The notes beneath the pieces were generated by a model. It made no database searches. It had not been told where the DNA came from and worked only from the letters and a program-made list of their open reading frames with translations. DNA of 64,000 nucleotides from Prevotella sp. (GTDB lineage: Bacteria; Bacteroidota; Bacteroidia; Bacteroidales; Bacteroidaceae): the NCBI GenBank assembly GCA_017934525.1, contig JAGBJJ010000031.1, forward strand, positions 14,184 through 78,183, written 5' to 3'. The position numbers and the translations under genes were made by a program. Shown in pieces: positions 5,511 to 12,639 of the stretch. Numbering within the stretch: position 1 is the stretch's first letter; each line of letters opens with the position of its first letter.

Positions 5511-6569
5511 TCAGCGTATGGTCACCTGGGTTGCCCCGTAGCCATATTCGCGGAACGAGGCGTCCTGATAGGTGTATTGCTTGTAGCGATACTGCAGCTC
5601 GTTGACCAGGGCCTTGCGGAGCACGCCTTCGCCCTTGCCGTGGATAAACACAATCTTCGTGCCGTGTTTCTTCTCATGCTCCTTCAGCGTCTTGCGAAAC
5701 ACGTCGAGCTGGTAGTTAAGGATGTCTGAGGCCGACATGCCTGCCGTCGTTTCAAGCAGCTCGGCGGCGTGCAGGTCTACCACCACTGGGTCGCCAGGGT
5801 TGCGCGAGGGCGTAACCATCGGCCGTTTGGCAGGCTCGTCACTCTTCTGATACATGCTTGCCTTCAGCTGCTGCGCATCGATGCTGAGCGAACGGGCGGG
5901 CCTGTCGTTCTCAATGATAGTATAGACGAGGGCCGGCTGCTCAAAATACACGCTGGGCTGGAAGGTGTGAAGCTTATAGAACTTCACGGGGTCGAGGCGC
6001 AGCTGCACGTCAACAACCGGTTTCATGAGGTATGTTTTCTCGCGCTTATAGGCTAATATCTGTACGGCCACACGCTCCATCGAGTTGAGATCCTCACGCC
6101 CGAACTCTTCCAGAAACACCTGCATGTTGGGCTCCACCTCGGCCGTCTCGCGCAGCCGCCAGCCGGCGCCCTCGGCTGTCATGTAGGTGAAGCGCATGTA
6201 GTAGTTGGAGTCGTTGACGAAGTAGGTTTCAAAGCGTGTCTGCGATAGTTCCTTCACGTCGATGGGCACAAAGGCCAGATAGGCCGACAGCTGGTCGCCG
6301 CCCTTGCGGTCTTGCGGCTTGGCCTTGAATGTGACAGGCCGGTCGGCAGGCTCCAATTCACGCTCGGCGGGCTTACTCATGCGCTGCTTTACTTCCACCA
6401 CATGCGATGTGTCATAGTCTTCGTTGCCCACAACCACCACTTCGCTTATTCGCATAGGCACCTGGAAGCCGTCTTCATCTTCCACCAGCACAATGTCTTT
6501 GGCCTGGAATCCTGCCACGCGGCCGCCTCCCACCTCACTCAGAAATCTTACTTTATCTCCTATTTTCAT
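5511..6569 (-). CDS. DUF2027 / Smr-domain protein
   Basis: N-terminal KOW-like MKIGDKVRFL; C-terminal Smr domain with VDLH and IHGKGEGVLR. Confidence 0.85.
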   Translation of the reverse strand: MKIGDKVRFLSEVGGGRVAGFQAKDIVLVEDEDGFQVPMRISEVVVVGNEDYDTSHVVEVKQRMSKPAERELEPADRPVTFKAKPQDRKGGDQLSAYLAFVPIDVKELSQTRFETYFVNDSNYYMRFTYMTAEGAGWRLRETAEVEPNMQVFLEEFGREDLNSMERVAVQILAYKREKTYLMKPVVDVQLRLDPVKFYKLHTFQPSVYFEQPALVYTIIENDRPARSLSIDAQQLKASMYQKSDEPAKRPMVTPSRNPGDPVVVDLHAAELLETTAGMSASDILNYQLDVFRKTLKEHEKKHGTKIVFIHGKGEGVLRKALVNELQYRYKQYTYQDASFREYGYGATQVTIR

Positions 6570-7173: not shown

Positions 7174-8679
7174 ATGAACAATGACATCCTGACGATGAAT
7201 GCCAACCCTGTGGTGGCATTTCTTCAGAAGCCTGCAGAGGCACTGACAAAGGCAGACATTATTAAATATGTCCGCGAGAATGACATTCGCATGATTAACT
7301 TCATGTATCCCGGCGGCGACGGCAAGCTCAAAACGCTGAACTTTGTCATCACCAACCTACAATATCTCGACACTATTCTCACCTGCGGCGAGCGTGTCGA
7401 CGGCAGCAGCCTTTTCTCTTTCATCCAGGCCGGCTCGAGCGACCTCTATGTGCTGCCGCGTTTCCGCACCGCATTCCTCGACCCGTTTGCCGAGATTCCC
7501 ACCCTGTCAATGCTGTGCTCGTTCTTCGACAAAGACGGCCAGCCGCTGGCCAGCGCACCGGAGCAGACGCTGCGCAAGGCCTCGGAGGCATTCAAGAAGG
7601 TCACCGGCATGCAGTTTGAAGCCATGGGTGAGCTGGAATACTACGTCATTTCTGCCGACGAGGAGGTGTTCCCTGCCATCGACCAGCACGGATACCATGA
7701 GTCTTCTCCCTATGCCAAGACCAATGCTTTCCGTACCAAGTGCATGCAATACATCGCCCAGACCGGCGGTCAGATTAAATATGGCCACTCGGAAGTGGGT
7801 AACTTCACACTCGAAGGTATGACCTACGAGCAGAACGAGATTGAATTCCTGCCCGTTCCCGTGGAGCAGGCTGCCGACCAGCTGATGCTTGCCAAGTGGG
7901 TGATTCGCAACCTGGCCTACGAAGAGGGCTACGATGTGACCTTCGCACCGAAGATTACATCAGGAAAAGCCGGCAGCGGTCTCCACATCCACATGCGCAT
8001 GACGAAAGACGGGCACAACCAGATGCTCGAGAATGGCGTGCTCTCAGAAAGCGCCCGCAAGATGATTGCAGGCATGATGGAGCTTGCTCCCGCCATCACG
8101 GCCTTCGGCAACAAGAACCCCACAAGTTACTTCCGTCTGGTGCCTCACCAGGAAGCTCCCACGAACGTATGCTGGGGCGACCGCAACCGTTCGGTGCTGG
8201 TGCGCGTGCCCTTAGGCTGGGCTGCCGGCGTCGACATGTCGGCCGTGGCTAATCCGCTAGAAGAGAAGATGAATCGCGACATGAGCGGCAAGCAGACCGT
8301 GGAGATGCGCTCGCCCGACGGCAGCGCCGACCTGTATCAGCTGCTGGCCGGACTGTGCGTGGCTTGCCGTCATGGCTTTGAGATGGACAATGCTCTCGAG
8401 GTGGCAGAGCGCAACTATGTGAACGTGAATATTCACGATGCCAAGAACGCTGACCGCCTGGCTCAGCTGGCACAGCTGCCCGACTCGTGCGTTGCTTCGG
8501 CTGCATGCCTCGAGAAGCTGCGCCACGTCTTTGAGGAGTACGACGTGTTCAGCCCTGCCATGATCGACGGAATCATTGCCCAGCTGCGTGCCTTCAACGA
8601 CACAACGCTCCGTGCCGACATTGCCGACAAGCCCGAGGAGATTCTGAAGCTCGTGGAGCAGTACTTCCACTGCGGATAA
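7174..8679 (+). CDS. glnA: Glutamine synthetase, type I-like
   Basis: DGSS, ELEYY, HSEVG, QNEIE, FAPK, GSGLHIH, NRSVLVRVP and EMRSPD motifs; TACCTTTG at 7127. Confidence 0.88.
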   Translation: MNNDILTMNANPVVAFLQKPAEALTKADIIKYVRENDIRMINFMYPGGDGKLKTLNFVITNLQYLDTILTCGERVDGSSLFSFIQAGSSDLYVLPRFRTAFLDPFAEIPTLSMLCSFFDKDGQPLASAPEQTLRKASEAFKKVTGMQFEAMGELEYYVISADEEVFPAIDQHGYHESSPYAKTNAFRTKCMQYIAQTGGQIKYGHSEVGNFTLEGMTYEQNEIEFLPVPVEQAADQLMLAKWVIRNLAYEEGYDVTFAPKITSGKAGSGLHIHMRMTKDGHNQMLENGVLSESARKMIAGMMELAPAITAFGNKNPTSYFRLVPHQEAPTNVCWGDRNRSVLVRVPLGWAAGVDMSAVANPLEEKMNRDMSGKQTVEMRSPDGSADLYQLLAGLCVACRHGFEMDNALEVAERNYVNVNIHDAKNADRLAQLAQLPDSCVASAACLEKLRHVFEEYDVFSPAMIDGIIAQLRAFNDTTLRADIADKPEEILKLVEQYFHCG

Positions 8680-8701: not shown

Positions 8702-8754
8702 AATTGGCACTAATGCCGGAGTCGCCCTCCTGACATTAGTGCCAATTTCTTTTA
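8702..8754 (+). terminator. Terminator hairpin between glnA and the convergent reductase gene
   Basis: AATTGGCACTAATG/CATTAGTGCCAATT stem followed by TCTTTT. Confidence 0.7.
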
Positions 8755-8769: not shown

Positions 8770-10137
8770 CTATGCGTTCTGCTTCAGCTCTTCGATGAAC
8801 TGACCTATGCGCTGCAGCTCCATCGGGATGCGTATGTTCTGCGGACAATGCGGCATACACTGCCCACACTGTATGCAATGGTCGGGCTGACGGTCGCGTG
8901 CCACGGCGCGGTCAAGGCTGATAAGATAGCGTCGGCGGTTGGCCCGATAGCTGGCGTCGCCCGCATCGTCGGGCAGCCGACCCTCTATCTTCATCTTGTT
9001 GTAGTGCACGAAGATGCCGGGTATGTCAATCCCGTAAGGACATGGCATGCAGTATTTACAGTCATTGCAGGGTATGTTATCCTCCTCCATCATCTGATGG
9101 GCAATAGTTGTGTCGAGGAATCGCTGCTCCTCTTCAGTGAGAGGCACCAGCGGACAATAGGAAAGCAGGTTGTCTTTCAGGTGCTCCATAAACGTCATGC
9201 CGCTGAGCACCGTGAGCACACCCTCAGGAGTGCCTGCATACCGGAAAGCCCACGACGCCACACTGCGCTGCGGTTCGCGCTGCTTCAGCTCGCTGACCAC
9301 ATACTGGGGCACCTTGGCCAGGCGCCCGCCAAGCAGCGGCTCCATGATGACGGCCGGAATGTTGCGCTTGTGCAGCTCTTCATAGAGATAAGAGGCATCG
9401 GTGTTTCTCTCGTTGATTTCGTCGGCATAGTTCCAGTCGAGGTAGTTCAGCTCTATTTGCACGAAGTCCCAGTGGTACTTATCATTCTCGGAAAGCAGAT
9501 AGTCGAACACTTCAATCTCGCCATGATACGAGAAGCCAAGGTTCTTGATGCGTCCGGCCTCGCGTTCCTTTAGCATAAAGTCGAGCAGGCCATTGTCTAT
9601 GTAGCGGGCTTTCAGTGCCCTCATGCCCCCCATCCCGATGCCATGCATCAGATAATAGTCGATATAGTCTACCTGAAGCTCTTTCATCGAGTTGCGATAC
9701 ATCTGGATAGAGGCCTCACGCGTCTGAGTCGAGGGGTCGAAGTTTGAGAGCTTCGTGGCAATGAAGAACTTATTGCGCGGATGACGCTTCAAGGCGATGC
9801 CCGTGCAGTGCTCCGAGAGTCCGCGGCAGTACGTAGGCGACGTATCGAAATAGTTCAGCCCGTGTTCAATGGCATAGTCCACCTGGCGGTTGATCATGTC
9901 CTGGTCATATTCCTCACTGTTAGGCAACGTAGGCAGGCGCATCATTCCATAGCCAAGCAGCGAGACGGACTCTCCTGTTTTAGGATTCTTGCGATAAGTC
10001 ATTTGTCCCACAGGCGGTTCCACCAGCGATTCCTCTCCGCTGTTGCCCTTGCCTGCACAAGCAGCCAATGCTGCCACCGAACCTGCTCCCATCAGCTTAA
10101 GGAAGGAACGGCGTGAAATACTCTTATTATCGGTCAT
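8770..10137 (-). CDS. Aldo/keto reductase with C-terminal 4Fe-4S dicluster and Tat lipoprotein signal
   Basis: SRRSFLK, h-region and LAAC; AKR tetrad residues in YFDTSPTY, ATKL and LMH; CNDCKYCMPCP and CIQCGQCMPHCP. Confidence 0.88.
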   Translation of the reverse strand: MTDNKSISRRSFLKLMGAGSVAALAACAGKGNSGEESLVEPPVGQMTYRKNPKTGESVSLLGYGMMRLPTLPNSEEYDQDMINRQVDYAIEHGLNYFDTSPTYCRGLSEHCTGIALKRHPRNKFFIATKLSNFDPSTQTREASIQMYRNSMKELQVDYIDYYLMHGIGMGGMRALKARYIDNGLLDFMLKEREAGRIKNLGFSYHGEIEVFDYLLSENDKYHWDFVQIELNYLDWNYADEINERNTDASYLYEELHKRNIPAVIMEPLLGGRLAKVPQYVVSELKQREPQRSVASWAFRYAGTPEGVLTVLSGMTFMEHLKDNLLSYCPLVPLTEEEQRFLDTTIAHQMMEEDNIPCNDCKYCMPCPYGIDIPGIFVHYNKMKIEGRLPDDAGDASYRANRRRYLISLDRAVARDRQPDHCIQCGQCMPHCPQNIRIPMELQRIGQFIEELKQNA

Positions 10138-10159
10138 AGTCTTTTCTCTGTTCTTTGGA

Positions 10160-11635
10160 TTAAATATTGCGATGTACTTCGTGACCTTCTACAAAGATGG
10201 CCGAAAACGGCCTGACAGGACACAGATGCTCGCAGGCACCGCAGCCGATGCATGCTTCCTCATTGACGACAGGCACATAGGGTGACAGGTCGTCGTCGGG
10301 ATCAGAGGGCACCATTTCAATGGCTCCAGCAGGGCAATGGCGGGCGCAGTTGCCGCACTCGGTGTTGCCTTGAGCCGAAAGACAGTGGTCTAATGACACG
10401 ACAGCGTGACCTATCTGTATGGCTGTCTTCTCTTCTTTGTCTATCGGTTTGATGGCACCGGCAGGGCAGACCTCCGAGCAGCGGGTGCACTCCGGGCGAC
10501 AATAGCCACGCTCATAACTCATCACCGGCTGCATCAGATGAAGCAAGTCAGTAGAGGGACGCAGCACATCGTTGGGACACTCTGACACACAGAGCTGACA
10601 TCCCGTGCAGCGTGTCGCCATATTCTTGGCCGACAACGAGCCCGGAGGCGTCAGGGGCGTCTTGCGCTTTGGAGCGCGCTTGTCTTCCAACTCCGCCAGA
10701 CCGCCATCCACTTTTTTCTTCTCCTGCGCCAAAGCAGCTGTAGCTACCATGGCAGAGGCCACGAGGAATGAACGTTTTCCCGGGTCAGGGCGGCCGGTTC
10801 CTGTCGCCGACGACTTGCGGGGAAGAGAGTAGCTGAGGGCTCCGAACTTGCATTTGCTGATGCAATCGCCGCAGACCACACAGCGCGAATAGTCGACCGT
10901 GTGCGACTTAAAGTCGATGCAGGAGGCCTTACAGTTCTTCGTGCAGAGCGAACACGAGCGACACTTGTCGGTCTGAAACCTGACTTTCAGCAAAGAGAAA
11001 CGCGAGAAGAACGAAAGCAGCGTGCCCACAGGACATATGGTGTTGCAATAAGTACGCCCGCCACGCCATGCAAGCACCGCGAGCACCACGAGCGTAACTA
11101 CAGCAATAACAAGCACCGGCAGCGACTTCATCCATACGTCGACCGAATAAAAAGCATAGCTGTCTGCCCGTTCTGCCAGCATGGCAAGCACGTTATTGCC
11201 CAGTTTCCATAGCGGCTGGAAAATCATGGTTGCAATACGGCCGAAGGCACTGTAGGGAGCCAGCAGCTCAACCAGCGAGCCCACACCGGCTGCCAAGGCG
11301 ACGACGAAGACGCCAAGAACCGAATAGCGCAGCCAGGAGATGGCGCGTGAGAAGGTGTACCGGTTCTTTCGCTTCTTCTTGCCAAACCACGCAATGAGGT
11401 CCTGCATCACCCCCAGCGGACATATCACGGAGCAATAGATACGTCCGAAGACAAGCGTCAGCGCCGCCAAAGCCGCCACCACTATGAAGTTAAGGGCCAT
11501 GACGGCCGGCAAAAACTGCACCTTGGCCATCCATCCCAGCCAAACATGAAGCACACCCGTGAAATCGAGAAACAACAACGTGATTCCGATGAAGAACACG
11601 CTTGCCAACAGAATTCTTATTCTTCTAAGCATCAT
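10160..11635 (-). CDS. Membrane polyferredoxin (NapH/MauN-like N-terminus plus multiple 4Fe-4S motifs)
   Basis: TM helices with two CxxxCP motifs (YCSVICP, YCNTICP), then several CxxCxxCxxxC motifs. Confidence 0.85.
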   Translation of the reverse strand: MMLRRIRILLASVFFIGITLLFLDFTGVLHVWLGWMAKVQFLPAVMALNFIVVAALAALTLVFGRIYCSVICPLGVMQDLIAWFGKKKRKNRYTFSRAISWLRYSVLGVFVVALAAGVGSLVELLAPYSAFGRIATMIFQPLWKLGNNVLAMLAERADSYAFYSVDVWMKSLPVLVIAVVTLVVLAVLAWRGGRTYCNTICPVGTLLSFFSRFSLLKVRFQTDKCRSCSLCTKNCKASCIDFKSHTVDYSRCVVCGDCISKCKFGALSYSLPRKSSATGTGRPDPGKRSFLVASAMVATAALAQEKKKVDGGLAELEDKRAPKRKTPLTPPGSLSAKNMATRCTGCQLCVSECPNDVLRPSTDLLHLMQPVMSYERGYCRPECTRCSEVCPAGAIKPIDKEEKTAIQIGHAVVSLDHCLSAQGNTECGNCARHCPAGAIEMVPSDPDDDLSPYVPVVNEEACIGCGACEHLCPVRPFSAIFVEGHEVHRNI

Positions 11636-11660
11636 ACTTGATTATATCACTATTCTTAAA

Positions 11661-12398
11661 TTAAACTTTCACTACCAGCATGCTGCCTTCATAGAGCAGC
11701 CAAATGGGCAATGCCACAACCAAGAGCGTAAACACATCGGTTGTGGGGGTAATGACGGCCGCCACCACGAGGATAGCCACCAGGGCATGACGACGGTAAT
11801 AGCGCATCAGCCGCCTGTTGATGAACCCCATACGGCTTAAGATGGCGCAGACCACCGGAAGCTCGAACACCACGCCCATCACCAGATTCATTGAGATAAG
11901 CGTATCTACATAGCTCTGCAGGGTCAGCATATTGTCTACGTCGGGGCTCACCTGATAGGTGCCTAAGAAGCGCACCGTAAGCGGGAAGATGACGAAATAG
12001 CAGACCAGCGTGCCGACGGCAAACATGACATACGACGCCACCACCACCCTCACGGCGGCCTTACGTTCGCTCTGGTAAAGGCCAGGGGAGACAAAGCGCA
12101 TGAGTTGACACAGCACGTAGGGCAGGCCGAAAAGCAGGCCTGCATAGACGGCGACACGCATGTGGGTCATAAACTGCTCGGTCAGTCCCGTGTTCATCAG
12201 ATGCAGGCTGAAAGGTTCTGCGTGCATAAGACGGTAGACAAAGAAATCGCTCGAGCGGGGGGCCAGCACCACGGCAAACAAACTGTCTTTCAGGCAGAAC
12301 GCTACCACAGCGAGCACTAACACCACGCACAGCGACCGCAGAATGACGGCCCGCAACTCGTCGAGATGTTCCCAGAACGTGCCCTGTCCGTCAGTCAT
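11661..12398 (-). CDS. tatC: Twin-arginine translocase subunit TatC
   Basis: [33 protein letters not shown]. Confidence 0.93.
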
Positions 12399-12585
12399 CG
12401 CCCTTCACCTCATCGTCAATATCCTTCATTCCCTCCTTGAAACTTTTCACGCCCTTGCCCAGGCCGCGCATCAGCTCGGGAATCTTCGATCCCCCGAAAA
12501 GCAGCAGCACTACCAAGGCTATGAGCAGCACTTCCTGGCCTCCAAGACCAAGGAGCAGCATTACATTCAGTTCTGTCATATTCAT
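12391..12585 (-). CDS. tatA: Twin-arginine translocase subunit TatA/E
   Basis: [37 protein letters not shown]. Confidence 0.93.
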
Positions 12586-12631
12586 TTATTGTTTGGTATC
12601 TCTATTCAAAGTAATAACTATGTTTCTGTTG

Positions 12632-12639
12632 CAAAATTA
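12632..12639 (-). promoter_or_regulatory. -7 element (TAATTTTG) of the tatA-tatC-polyferredoxin-AKR operon
   Basis: Reverse complement of CAAAATTA matches TAnnTTTG, about 47 nt upstream of tatA. Confidence 0.5.

Follow-up and report, generated by a model that had tools for sequence, protein, structure and literature searches.

How could an aldo-keto reductase (AKR) be run outside the cytoplasm? AKRs are textbook soluble, cytoplasmic enzymes depending on reduced nicotinamide dinucleotides (NAD(P)H), and free NAD(P)H is lacking outside the cytoplasm. The question is raised by a locus in a 64,000-nucleotide stretch of a Prevotella genome (GenBank assembly GCA_017934525.1, contig JAGBJJ010000031.1; the whole stretch is called the window here), where four genes lie head to tail between positions 8770 and 12585, all on the minus strand: tatA and tatC of the pathway for twin-arginine translocation (Tat), the gene of a membrane polyferredoxin, and the gene of an iron-sulfur (Fe-S) AKR with a predicted Tat lipoprotein signal. 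The window genome is a 2.6-Mb metagenome-assembled genome (MAG) with a completeness of 76.5%. Based on the results below, we conclude that the operon probably encodes the only TatA-TatC translocase of the cell together with its two principal clients, which would form an extracytoplasmic electron-transfer enzyme system.

The genes are closely spaced, with an overlap of 8 nucleotides between tatA and tatC, a gap of 25 nucleotides between tatC and the polyferredoxin gene, and a gap of 22 nucleotides between the latter and the AKR gene. A Bacteroidota-type −7 promoter box, TAATTTTG, matches the motif TAnnTTTG exactly at 12632–12639 (minus strand), 47 nucleotides upstream of the tatA ATG, and a motif scan of 8770–12632 found no second TAnnTTTG on that strand. 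At the other end, a hairpin with a 14-bp stem (8702–8747, minus strand) occupies the spacer between the AKR stop codon and a convergent glutamine-synthetase-like gene. Its minimum free energy is −41.4 kcal/mol (z = −6.95) and none of 200 shuffled sequences folds equally well; it is likely a bidirectional terminator. A simple terminator scan gave nothing 3′ of the AKR gene, as the long loop of this hairpin caused it to be missed. tatA, tatC, the polyferredoxin gene and the AKR gene thus appear to form one transcription unit. The initial annotation, made from the letters of the DNA, had described the four co-directional genes, a −7 element upstream and a terminator downstream; its coordinates, overlap and gaps are exact, and both signals were recovered.

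The AKR (455 amino acids; 8770–10137) matches PF00248 with 111 bits (positions 2–284 of 291), besides Fer4_9 and Fer4_8. Residues 1–27 (10057–10137) have the layout of a Tat signal peptide with a lipobox, comprising SRRSFLK at residues 8–14, a hydrophobic h-region and LAAC with Cys27 as its last residue. The Tat-signal model TIGR01409 scores 19.7 against a cut-off of 16.7, and this is the sole TIGR01409 match in the whole genome, while the Pfam model PF10518 (TAT_signal) reaches 18.2 bits and stays under its cut-off of 22.7. In the 80 nearest orthologous AKR loci, the twin-arginine motif is kept without exception and a Cys ends the h-region in approximately 78. Judged by this conservation, the AKR is a Tat lipoprotein, predicted to be anchored at Cys27. 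The residues following Cys27 are Lys-rich and not acidic; compared with what we take to be the surface-export signals of Bacteroidota, such a stretch lets us expect that the AKR faces the periplasm rather than the cell surface.

The mature part consists of an (alpha/beta)8 barrel (residues 46–340; 9118–10002), which contains the catalytic tetrad D98/Y103/K129/H165, S203-Y-H205 and M265-E266-P267, and a C-terminal dicluster domain (residues 355–436; 8830–9075; Fer4_9/Fer4_8/Fer4_17). The two cluster motifs of the latter, C357-C360-C363-C366-P (CX2CX2CX2CP) and C421-C424-C427-C431-P (CX2CX2CX3CP), are about 55 residues apart. All eight Cys are invariant in 67 sequences, and over 67 to 107 diverse members the tetrad, the eight Cys, S203-x-H205, M265-E266-P267, G313 and N323 are invariant or nearly so. 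The export signal, the tetrad and the two 4Fe-4S motifs of the initial annotation are therefore all present and conserved. An AlphaFold2 model of the AKR (pLDDT 92.6, pTM 0.87) retrieved only canonical AKR barrels with Foldseek, with target-normalised TM-scores up to 0.83; consequently, no solved structure covers the combination of barrel and dicluster domain. Among characterised or solved proteins, L-galactose dehydrogenases that depend on NAD(P) come nearest, together with AKR11C1, a weak hint of sugar substrates.

The Fe-S AKR family is large, with 760 clusters at 50% identity (E <1e-30), and comprises many forms of approx. 375 amino acids without a signal peptide, presumably cytoplasmic, in addition to Tat-type forms of 440–490 amino acids. 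It includes proteins of the COG1453 type, annotated as 'predicted oxidoreductases of the aldo/keto reductase family', which share the two-domain architecture, the tetrad, S-x-H, M-E-P and the eight Cys with the window AKR at 33–40% identity. They differ from it in being shorter (approx. 370–390 amino acids) and without a signal peptide, and are uncharacterised as well.

The gene between tatC and the AKR gene (10160–11635) encodes a polytopic polyferredoxin of 491 amino acids, which reads as a fusion of NapH and NapG; six [4Fe-4S] sites are predicted in it, besides two CX3CP motifs. Pfam and NCBIfam models give two Fer4_5 domains, several Fer4 domains, and NapH- and NapG-like matches under the cut-offs. 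In the NapH-like half (residues 1–270; 10826–11635), which carries both Fer4_5 domains, Kyte-Doolittle hydropathy with a threshold of 1.2 places four transmembrane (TM) helices at residues 8–26, 45–63, 106–124 and 171–189. The CX3CP motifs follow helices 2 and 4 (residues 68–73 and 197–202), and two four-Cys motifs (residues 225–235 and 252–262) are predicted to be cytoplasmic. Alignment and hydropathy then place a Tat-type motif, G-K-R-S-F-L, before a weak fifth helix and an E-K-K-K stretch (together 10706–10780). This Ala-rich TM5 (approx. residues 290–306) has a mean hydropathy below 1.2, compared with 2.3–2.9 for TM1 to TM4. The motif, in the form (R/K)-R-x-F-(L/M), is present in 10/10 aligned Bacteroidales polyferredoxins, its second Arg (R288) being invariant. 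The remainder (residues 330–491; 10163–10648) is a NapG-like, predicted periplasmic domain with four four-Cys [4Fe-4S] motifs, whose Cys columns are invariant in the alignment.

Such an arrangement is known from one study, in which the polyferredoxin Q1NSB0 of the delta proteobacterium MLMS-1 was shown experimentally to be inserted jointly by Sec and Tat, and in which the low hydrophobicity of the fifth helix and the positive charges after it account for the handover to Tat (Tooke et al., 2017; eLife 6:e26577, PMC5449189). The window protein has all five defining features, including the NapH-NapG fusion, four Sec-type TM helices, cytoplasmic Fe-S sites, a Tat motif before a weak TM5 with positive charges next to it, and a four-cluster periplasmic domain, although the motif is R-R in Q1NSB0 and K-R here, and Tooke et al. 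used the delta-G(app) server instead of hydropathy. Since all sequence features of this family are present, the periplasmic four-cluster domain of the window protein would need Tat, and we assign the protein, on these features, to the dual Sec/Tat-inserted type, with a C-terminal half predicted to require Tat export. The published family list includes Chloroflexi, Nitrospirae and Euryarchaeota, no Bacteroidota, and names no partner enzyme (PMC5449189). The window polyferredoxin is a new lineage of the family.

Two genome samples were surveyed, an order sample of 151 Bacteroidales genomes taken at genus level (18 AKR-positive, including the window genome) and a family sample of 201 genomes from the family of the window genome, which holds both Prevotella and Bacteroides; the genomes in each are mutually related, so that all co-occurrence counts overstate independence. 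tatC was found in 70 of the 73 polyferredoxin-positive genomes of the order sample, the three exceptions being at most 89% complete, and in 54 of the 78 polyferredoxin-negative ones. The polyferredoxin gene is also a near-constant neighbour of the AKR gene. In 75 of the 80 nearest orthologous loci it is the gene immediately upstream, in the same orientation, and a contig end truncates three of the five other loci; in the order sample it adjoins the AKR gene in 16 of the 17 other AKR-positive genomes. The pair persists down to an AKR identity of 35–39%.

The translocase genes themselves are ordinary. tatA (12391–12585) encodes a TatA/E family protein of 64 amino acids (TIGR01411, 65.3 bits against a cut-off of 53.9; PF02416, 56.4 bits) and tatC (11661–12398) a protein of 245 amino acids (PF00902, 218 bits, positions 1–208 of 208; TIGR00945, 169.7 against a cut-off of 132.7). 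tatC has a single match genome-wide and this is, therefore, the only Tat system found in the MAG. One could argue that such a housekeeping locus sits by chance beside two unrelated redox genes and that the AKR N-terminus is a plain Sec lipoprotein signal. The sole status of tatAC would fit this explanation, as would the TAT_signal score under the gathering threshold and the order sample, where tat genes are near the pair in only 2 of the 18 AKR-positive genomes and are unlinked to it in 16 of the 17 others. Outside the family of the window genome, tat genes are indeed usually unlinked to the polyferredoxin-AKR pair. However, our initial reading of the linkage as sporadic was overturned by denser sampling (the 80 loci and the family sample). 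Among the 80 nearest loci, tatAC lies within 10 kb of the pair in 34, in two gene orders: tatAC-polyferredoxin-AKR as in the window (9 loci), and polyferredoxin-AKR-(DUF1893)-(ECF-S-like)-(TonB receptor)-tatAC, with an S-component-like gene of the energy-coupling factor (ECF) type (24 loci). In the family sample, 139/201 genomes (approx. 70%) carry the AKR, across 30 of 35 genera, and tatC is present in 137 of these 139 compared to 28 of the 62 AKR-negative genomes; of the two AKR-positive genomes without tatC, one is an 87%-complete MAG and one has its AKR at a contig end. Coordinates compared by hand place tatC within 5 kb of the AKR gene in about 32 of 52 AKR-positive family genomes (approx. 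60%). The association of the genes is far beyond chance. The twin-arginine motif of all 80 orthologues and the TIGR01409 score above its cut-off also speak against a plain Sec signal, as does the need of Fe-S cofactors for export in the folded state. A chance neighbourhood is, therefore, disfavoured and in our view highly improbable.

The initial annotation had gone one step further and called tatAC the module's own translocase. Linkage and co-occurrence do recur, as the neighbourhood survey it had proposed confirms with the counts above. Nevertheless, tatAC is not private to the module, since it is the only Tat system of the genome. It is the general and sole Tat machine, yet it travels and is retained with the module in this lineage. 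With this qualification, the idea of a module that comes with its translocase largely stands. A loose regular-expression census of Tat signals in the genome returned 130 matches, mostly noise, and was replaced by the TIGR01409 model. The recognisable Tat clients of the window genome are three, namely the AKR, a 49%-identical paralogue of it, and the polyferredoxin.

The conserved Tat signal of the AKR, its near-constant pairing with the polyferredoxin and the recurrent tatAC linkage make the extracytoplasmic AKR-polyferredoxin electron chain that had been suggested at the outset a sound, if sequence-based, reading. Tat exports folded, cofactor-loaded proteins, so that Fe-S clients are loaded in the cytoplasm. 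In the proposed sequence of events, Sec would insert the four hydrophobic helices of the polyferredoxin, so that both CX3CP motifs, along with two [4Fe-4S] sites, stay on the cytoplasmic side. The weak TM5, with K-R-x-F-L before it and lysines after it, would hand the folded, four-cluster NapG-like domain to Tat, and the finished, membrane-spanning protein would have two of its clusters on the inner side and four on the outer side. The AKR would fold and acquire its two [4Fe-4S] clusters in the cytoplasm, be exported by Tat and become lipid-anchored at Cys27 on the periplasmic side. There, its dicluster domain may exchange electrons with the NapG-like domain, and the NapH-like part may couple this exchange to the menaquinone/quinone pool or to cytoplasmic Fe-S donors, both by analogy with NapGH. 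No free NAD(P)H would be required at the conserved Asp-Tyr-Lys-His site, where a carbonyl or alcohol substrate, possibly sugar-derived, would undergo oxidation or reduction. Menaquinone has a potential of approx. −74 mV; aldose or alcohol oxidation would be downhill, whereas carbonyl reduction would need a donor of lower potential.

NapGH oxidises quinol and passes the electrons on to a periplasmic terminal enzyme (PMC5449189). In the NapGH quinol-dehydrogenase module that serves the periplasmic nitrate reductase of E. coli and Wolinella, as in NosGH and MauMN, a NapH-like membrane subunit and a Tat-exported four-cluster ferredoxin of the NapG type feed a periplasmic enzyme. By this analogy, the four-gene module can be seen as a periplasmic electron module of the NapGH type whose terminal enzyme is new. 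It differs in that the separate subunits are fused in one polypeptide, and in that the presumed terminal enzyme is an Fe-S AKR instead of a molybdoenzyme or a cytochrome. We considered whether the polyferredoxin is part of a Nap system and rejected this because neither NapA nor another Mo-enzyme was found in a profile search of the 76.5%-complete MAG.

Several points weigh against the proposed system. The curated NapG and NapH models score far under their cut-offs (NF007012, 69.3 against 269 bits; NF007013, 62.8 against 234; TIGR02163 napH, 68.6 against 213; a further match to TIGR00397 reaches 57 bits and is under its cut-off as well), so that a quinol dehydrogenase activity is proposed by analogy and not by membership in these families; the menaquinone link likewise comes from the comparison with NapGH. 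MenA was not found in the window MAG (76.5% complete). It is present in five of five near-complete AKR-positive relatives, two of them of the same genus, and the miss is likely an assembly gap, although this strain should not be taken to depend on menaquinone. The Tat motif of the window polyferredoxin is K-R and not R-R, as in five of the ten aligned polyferredoxins (four of the nine others). The pairing is not obligatory: the 49%-identical Fe-S AKR of the window genome lies on another contig with neither a polyferredoxin nor tat genes beside it, and one distant AKR homologue also stands alone. Further, one-electron Fe-S clusters would have to feed a hydride-transfer site with no obvious converter such as a flavin. 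Co-transcription of the four genes is deduced from their spacing and signals, and no description of the module was found in the searchable literature.

The paralogue mentioned above (G000:C34:11214–12593, corresponding to L099:2215–3594) retains all catalytic and Cys motifs and has an SRRQFL motif, with a signal-peptidase-I-type end to its signal and no lipobox. Two distant Tat-type Fe-S AKRs are encoded on the metagenome contigs L102 (3237–6052) and L100 (1122–9362). On one of these, the gene follows those of a separate NapH-like protein of 250 amino acids and of an FMN_bind protein; on the other, the AKR gene stands alone beside a glycan-utilisation cluster with SusC/SusD, a fucosidase and a GH20 enzyme.

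What carries the hydride in such an enzyme? The initial annotation assumed that the AKR is exported with tightly held NAD(P)(H) as a prosthetic group, recycled through its own clusters, the polyferredoxin and perhaps menaquinone. The intact tetrad is in line with this, as are several residues resembling the canonical dinucleotide contacts of AKRs, i.e., Ser203, Gln227 (88/107 sequences), Gly313 and Asp322-Asn323, and the NAD(P)-dependence of the nearest solved relatives. Bound nicotinamide also has precedents, since Kv-beta AKRs hold NADPH very tightly and the glucose-fructose oxidoreductase of Zymomonas mobilis is exported by Tat to the periplasm with non-dissociable NADP. The latter, however, has a Rossmann (Gfo/Idh/MocA) fold, lacks Fe-S clusters and a membrane partner, and recycles its cofactor with a second substrate. 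Canonical AKRs bind NAD(P) through Ser-Asn behind beta5, Gln behind beta6, an aromatic-Ser pair ahead of Pro-Leu behind beta7, and Lys/Arg with Glu-Asn at beta8/alpha8. Three of these contacts are replaced in the Fe-S AKR family: the carboxamide Asn by Phe/Tyr, the ring-stacking aromatic residue (Tyr) of the aromatic-Ser pair by Met265, followed by Glu266, and the 2′-phosphate Lys/Arg by Met-Ser. Moreover, the cytoplasmic members keep the Fe-S domain even though free NAD(P)H is available to them, which means that the clusters are not merely an adaptation to the periplasm. Neither the AKR nor the polyferredoxin contains a flavin-binding domain (Pfam, NCBIfam), and we know of no flavin- or metal-free precedent for one-electron exchange between a [4Fe-4S] cluster and nicotinamide. 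Bound NAD(P) recycled by the enzyme's own clusters is thus not supported so far; the proposed chemistry is unproven and awkward, and we regard this version as rather unlikely. As the hydride carrier taken by itself, a permanently bound pyridine dinucleotide is a tentative candidate that falls somewhat short of being probable.

In place of the lost contacts, the Fe-S AKR family has gained an invariant set of His205, Met265 and Glu266. It is conceivable that no organic hydride carrier exists and that the former nicotinamide pocket has taken on another use. Electrons would then pass directly to the bound carbonyl in two steps of one electron each, either from the proximal [4Fe-4S] cluster or from a mononuclear metal with His165/His205/Glu266/Asp98 as ligands, while the protons would come from the tetrad. 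Such a mechanism would agree with the invariance of the Fe-S domain even in cytoplasmic members, with the missing flavin domain, with the loss of canonical cofactor contacts, and with the position of the His/Met/Glu set on the C-terminal face of the barrel. It has to contend with the very low potentials that ketyl-radical chemistry needs and with the conserved AMP-side residues Gly313 and Asp322-Asn323; the latter hint that an adenosine monophosphate (AMP) pocket is retained and a nucleotide still bound. We hold it to be unlikely.

A metal could also enter as part of a cofactor. NphT is a hydride transferase of the AKR superfamily which depends on the nickel-pincer nucleotide NPMN (PDB 9YEB; Semersky et al., 2026, Nat Chem, PMC13524815), and the window AKR might be an exported, Fe-S-wired relative of it in which a nickel-pincer nucleotide (NPMN or NPAD) replaces NAD(P). 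A metal of this kind could accept single electrons, and periplasmic NAD(P)H would no longer be needed. His205 (G-F-S-Y-H-G) aligns with the Ni-ligand His144 of NphT (G-I-T-G-H-G) and occurs in 103 of 107 family representatives, whereas canonical AKRs have Phe, Ile or Leu at this position; as an alignment, this likeness is real. The two proteins also share the barrel and the Asp, His and Ser/Thr contacts, and both depart from the canonical NAD(P) contacts. NphT holds its cofactor through a covalent Lys, Lys200, but at or next to this position none of the 107 representatives has a Lys, the place being taken by the nearly invariant M265-E266-P267 (the equivalent position was located by its spacing from the conserved Asn, with 9YEB at rank 16 of the profile search). 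In favour of a relationship to NphT, 40% of lar-linked AKRs are reported to carry the His without the Lys (PMC13524815). A cavity that has no room for the AMP moiety characterises AKRs of the NphT type, whereas Gly313 and Asp322-Asn323 hint at a retained AMP pocket in the window AKR. Further differences are the Tat signal, the lipid anchor and the two-cluster Fe-S domain of the window AKR; NphT shuttles hydride between two substrates without an electron-transfer partner, and the main text of PMC13524815 mentions neither iron-sulfur clusters nor ferredoxin, Tat or the periplasm.

The biosynthetic lar genes were looked for as well. LarB, LarC and LarE were not found over their cut-offs in the window genome, LarB was over its cut-off in none of five near-complete AKR carriers, LarC was found neither in any of the 201 genomes of the family sample (139 of them AKR-positive) nor in any of the other 17 order-sample genomes with the AKR, and no lar genes occur in the 80 orthologous loci. 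A self-made nickel-pincer cofactor is consequently excluded for this lineage as sampled, and only scavenging would rescue the idea. In many relatives the operon also encodes an ECF S-component-like protein and, in some cases, a TonB-dependent receptor, so that uptake of a small molecule is possible, and in lar-less genomes these transporters could serve as the scavenging route. In addition, the lar genes of Bacteroidales are neighbours of another partner of the polyferredoxin, a DUF362 protein exported by Tat, as described below. Taken together, we consider a nickel-pincer relative of NphT improbable, and a scavenged nickel-pincer-type cofactor as the hydride carrier equally so. That the carrier is something else altogether, neither a dinucleotide nor direct Fe-S/metal chemistry nor a nickel-pincer compound, is quite unlikely. 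The same holds for another proposal, in which the His205/Met265/Glu266 pocket holds a nickel-pincer-type or other metal centre and no nicotinamide, the clusters re-charge this centre one electron at a time, and the cofactor or its precursor is scavenged from the community. If true, this would be a new class of hydride enzyme wired to a respiratory chain and depending on a cross-fed rare cofactor.

In other Bacteroidales (e.g., L096:5225–9801, L097:4948–12370 and L098:4900–10833), polyferredoxin homologues with 38–47% identity have no AKR as their partner but a DUF362 protein with a Tat signal. Of the 24 order-sample genomes in which LarC was found, at least 11 have this DUF362-polyferredoxin pair back-to-back with larC; larE and larB are also there in both DUF362 loci examined in full. 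The nickel-pincer genes of Bacteroidales thus accompany the DUF362 partner and not the AKR. The DUF362-polyferredoxin pair is found beside tatA-tatC in three genomes.

The genes inserted between the AKR gene and tatAC in many relatives encode a cytoplasmic DUF1893/TM1506 protein, an ECF S-component-like membrane protein of 170 amino acids, and sometimes the TonB-dependent receptor (L040:11404–13286, L032:11390–15198, L002:4712–8565 and approx. 25 further AKR loci). The ECF S-component-like protein is 43–63% identical to one encoded beside the DUF362-polyferredoxin pair. Neither this protein nor DUF1893 was found in the window genome, a 76.5%-complete MAG.

While the AKR belongs to an annotated yet uncharacterised family and the translocase is of the usual kind, the combination appears to be new: an Fe-S AKR, exported by Tat and anchored by a lipid, is coupled genetically to tatAC and to a NapGH-like polyferredoxin with dual targeting. 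We propose that the module is a widespread, so far uncharacterised way to run AKRs outside the cytoplasm. The family of its carriers, which includes Prevotella and Bacteroides, comprises dominant gut and rumen bacteria, and the closest named AKR homologues come from Prevotella and Prevotellaceae MAGs of rumen and gut. Cultured carriers are Bacteroides cellulosilyticus DSM 14838, Parabacteroides hominis NSJ-79 and Prevotella sp. ne3005. As the retention of Tat tracks the module in the family sample, the module may be a main reason why this family keeps Tat. Work on it could uncover, in the gut, a new redox reaction of the periplasm that acts on sugars or carbonyls, and a new route by which electrons enter or leave the anaerobic respiratory chain; it could also explain the flavin-free coupling of hydride chemistry to one-electron carriers.

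Elsewhere in the window, the TAnnTTTG motif is frequent, with 41 occurrences compared to 18.4 expected by shuffling, several of them as divergent pairs in intergenic spacers. The glutamine-synthetase-like gene convergent with the operon (7174–8679, plus strand) encodes 501 amino acids and scores far under every NCBIfam GlnA cut-off. A protein with DUF2027 and Smr domains is encoded at 5511–6569 on the minus strand.

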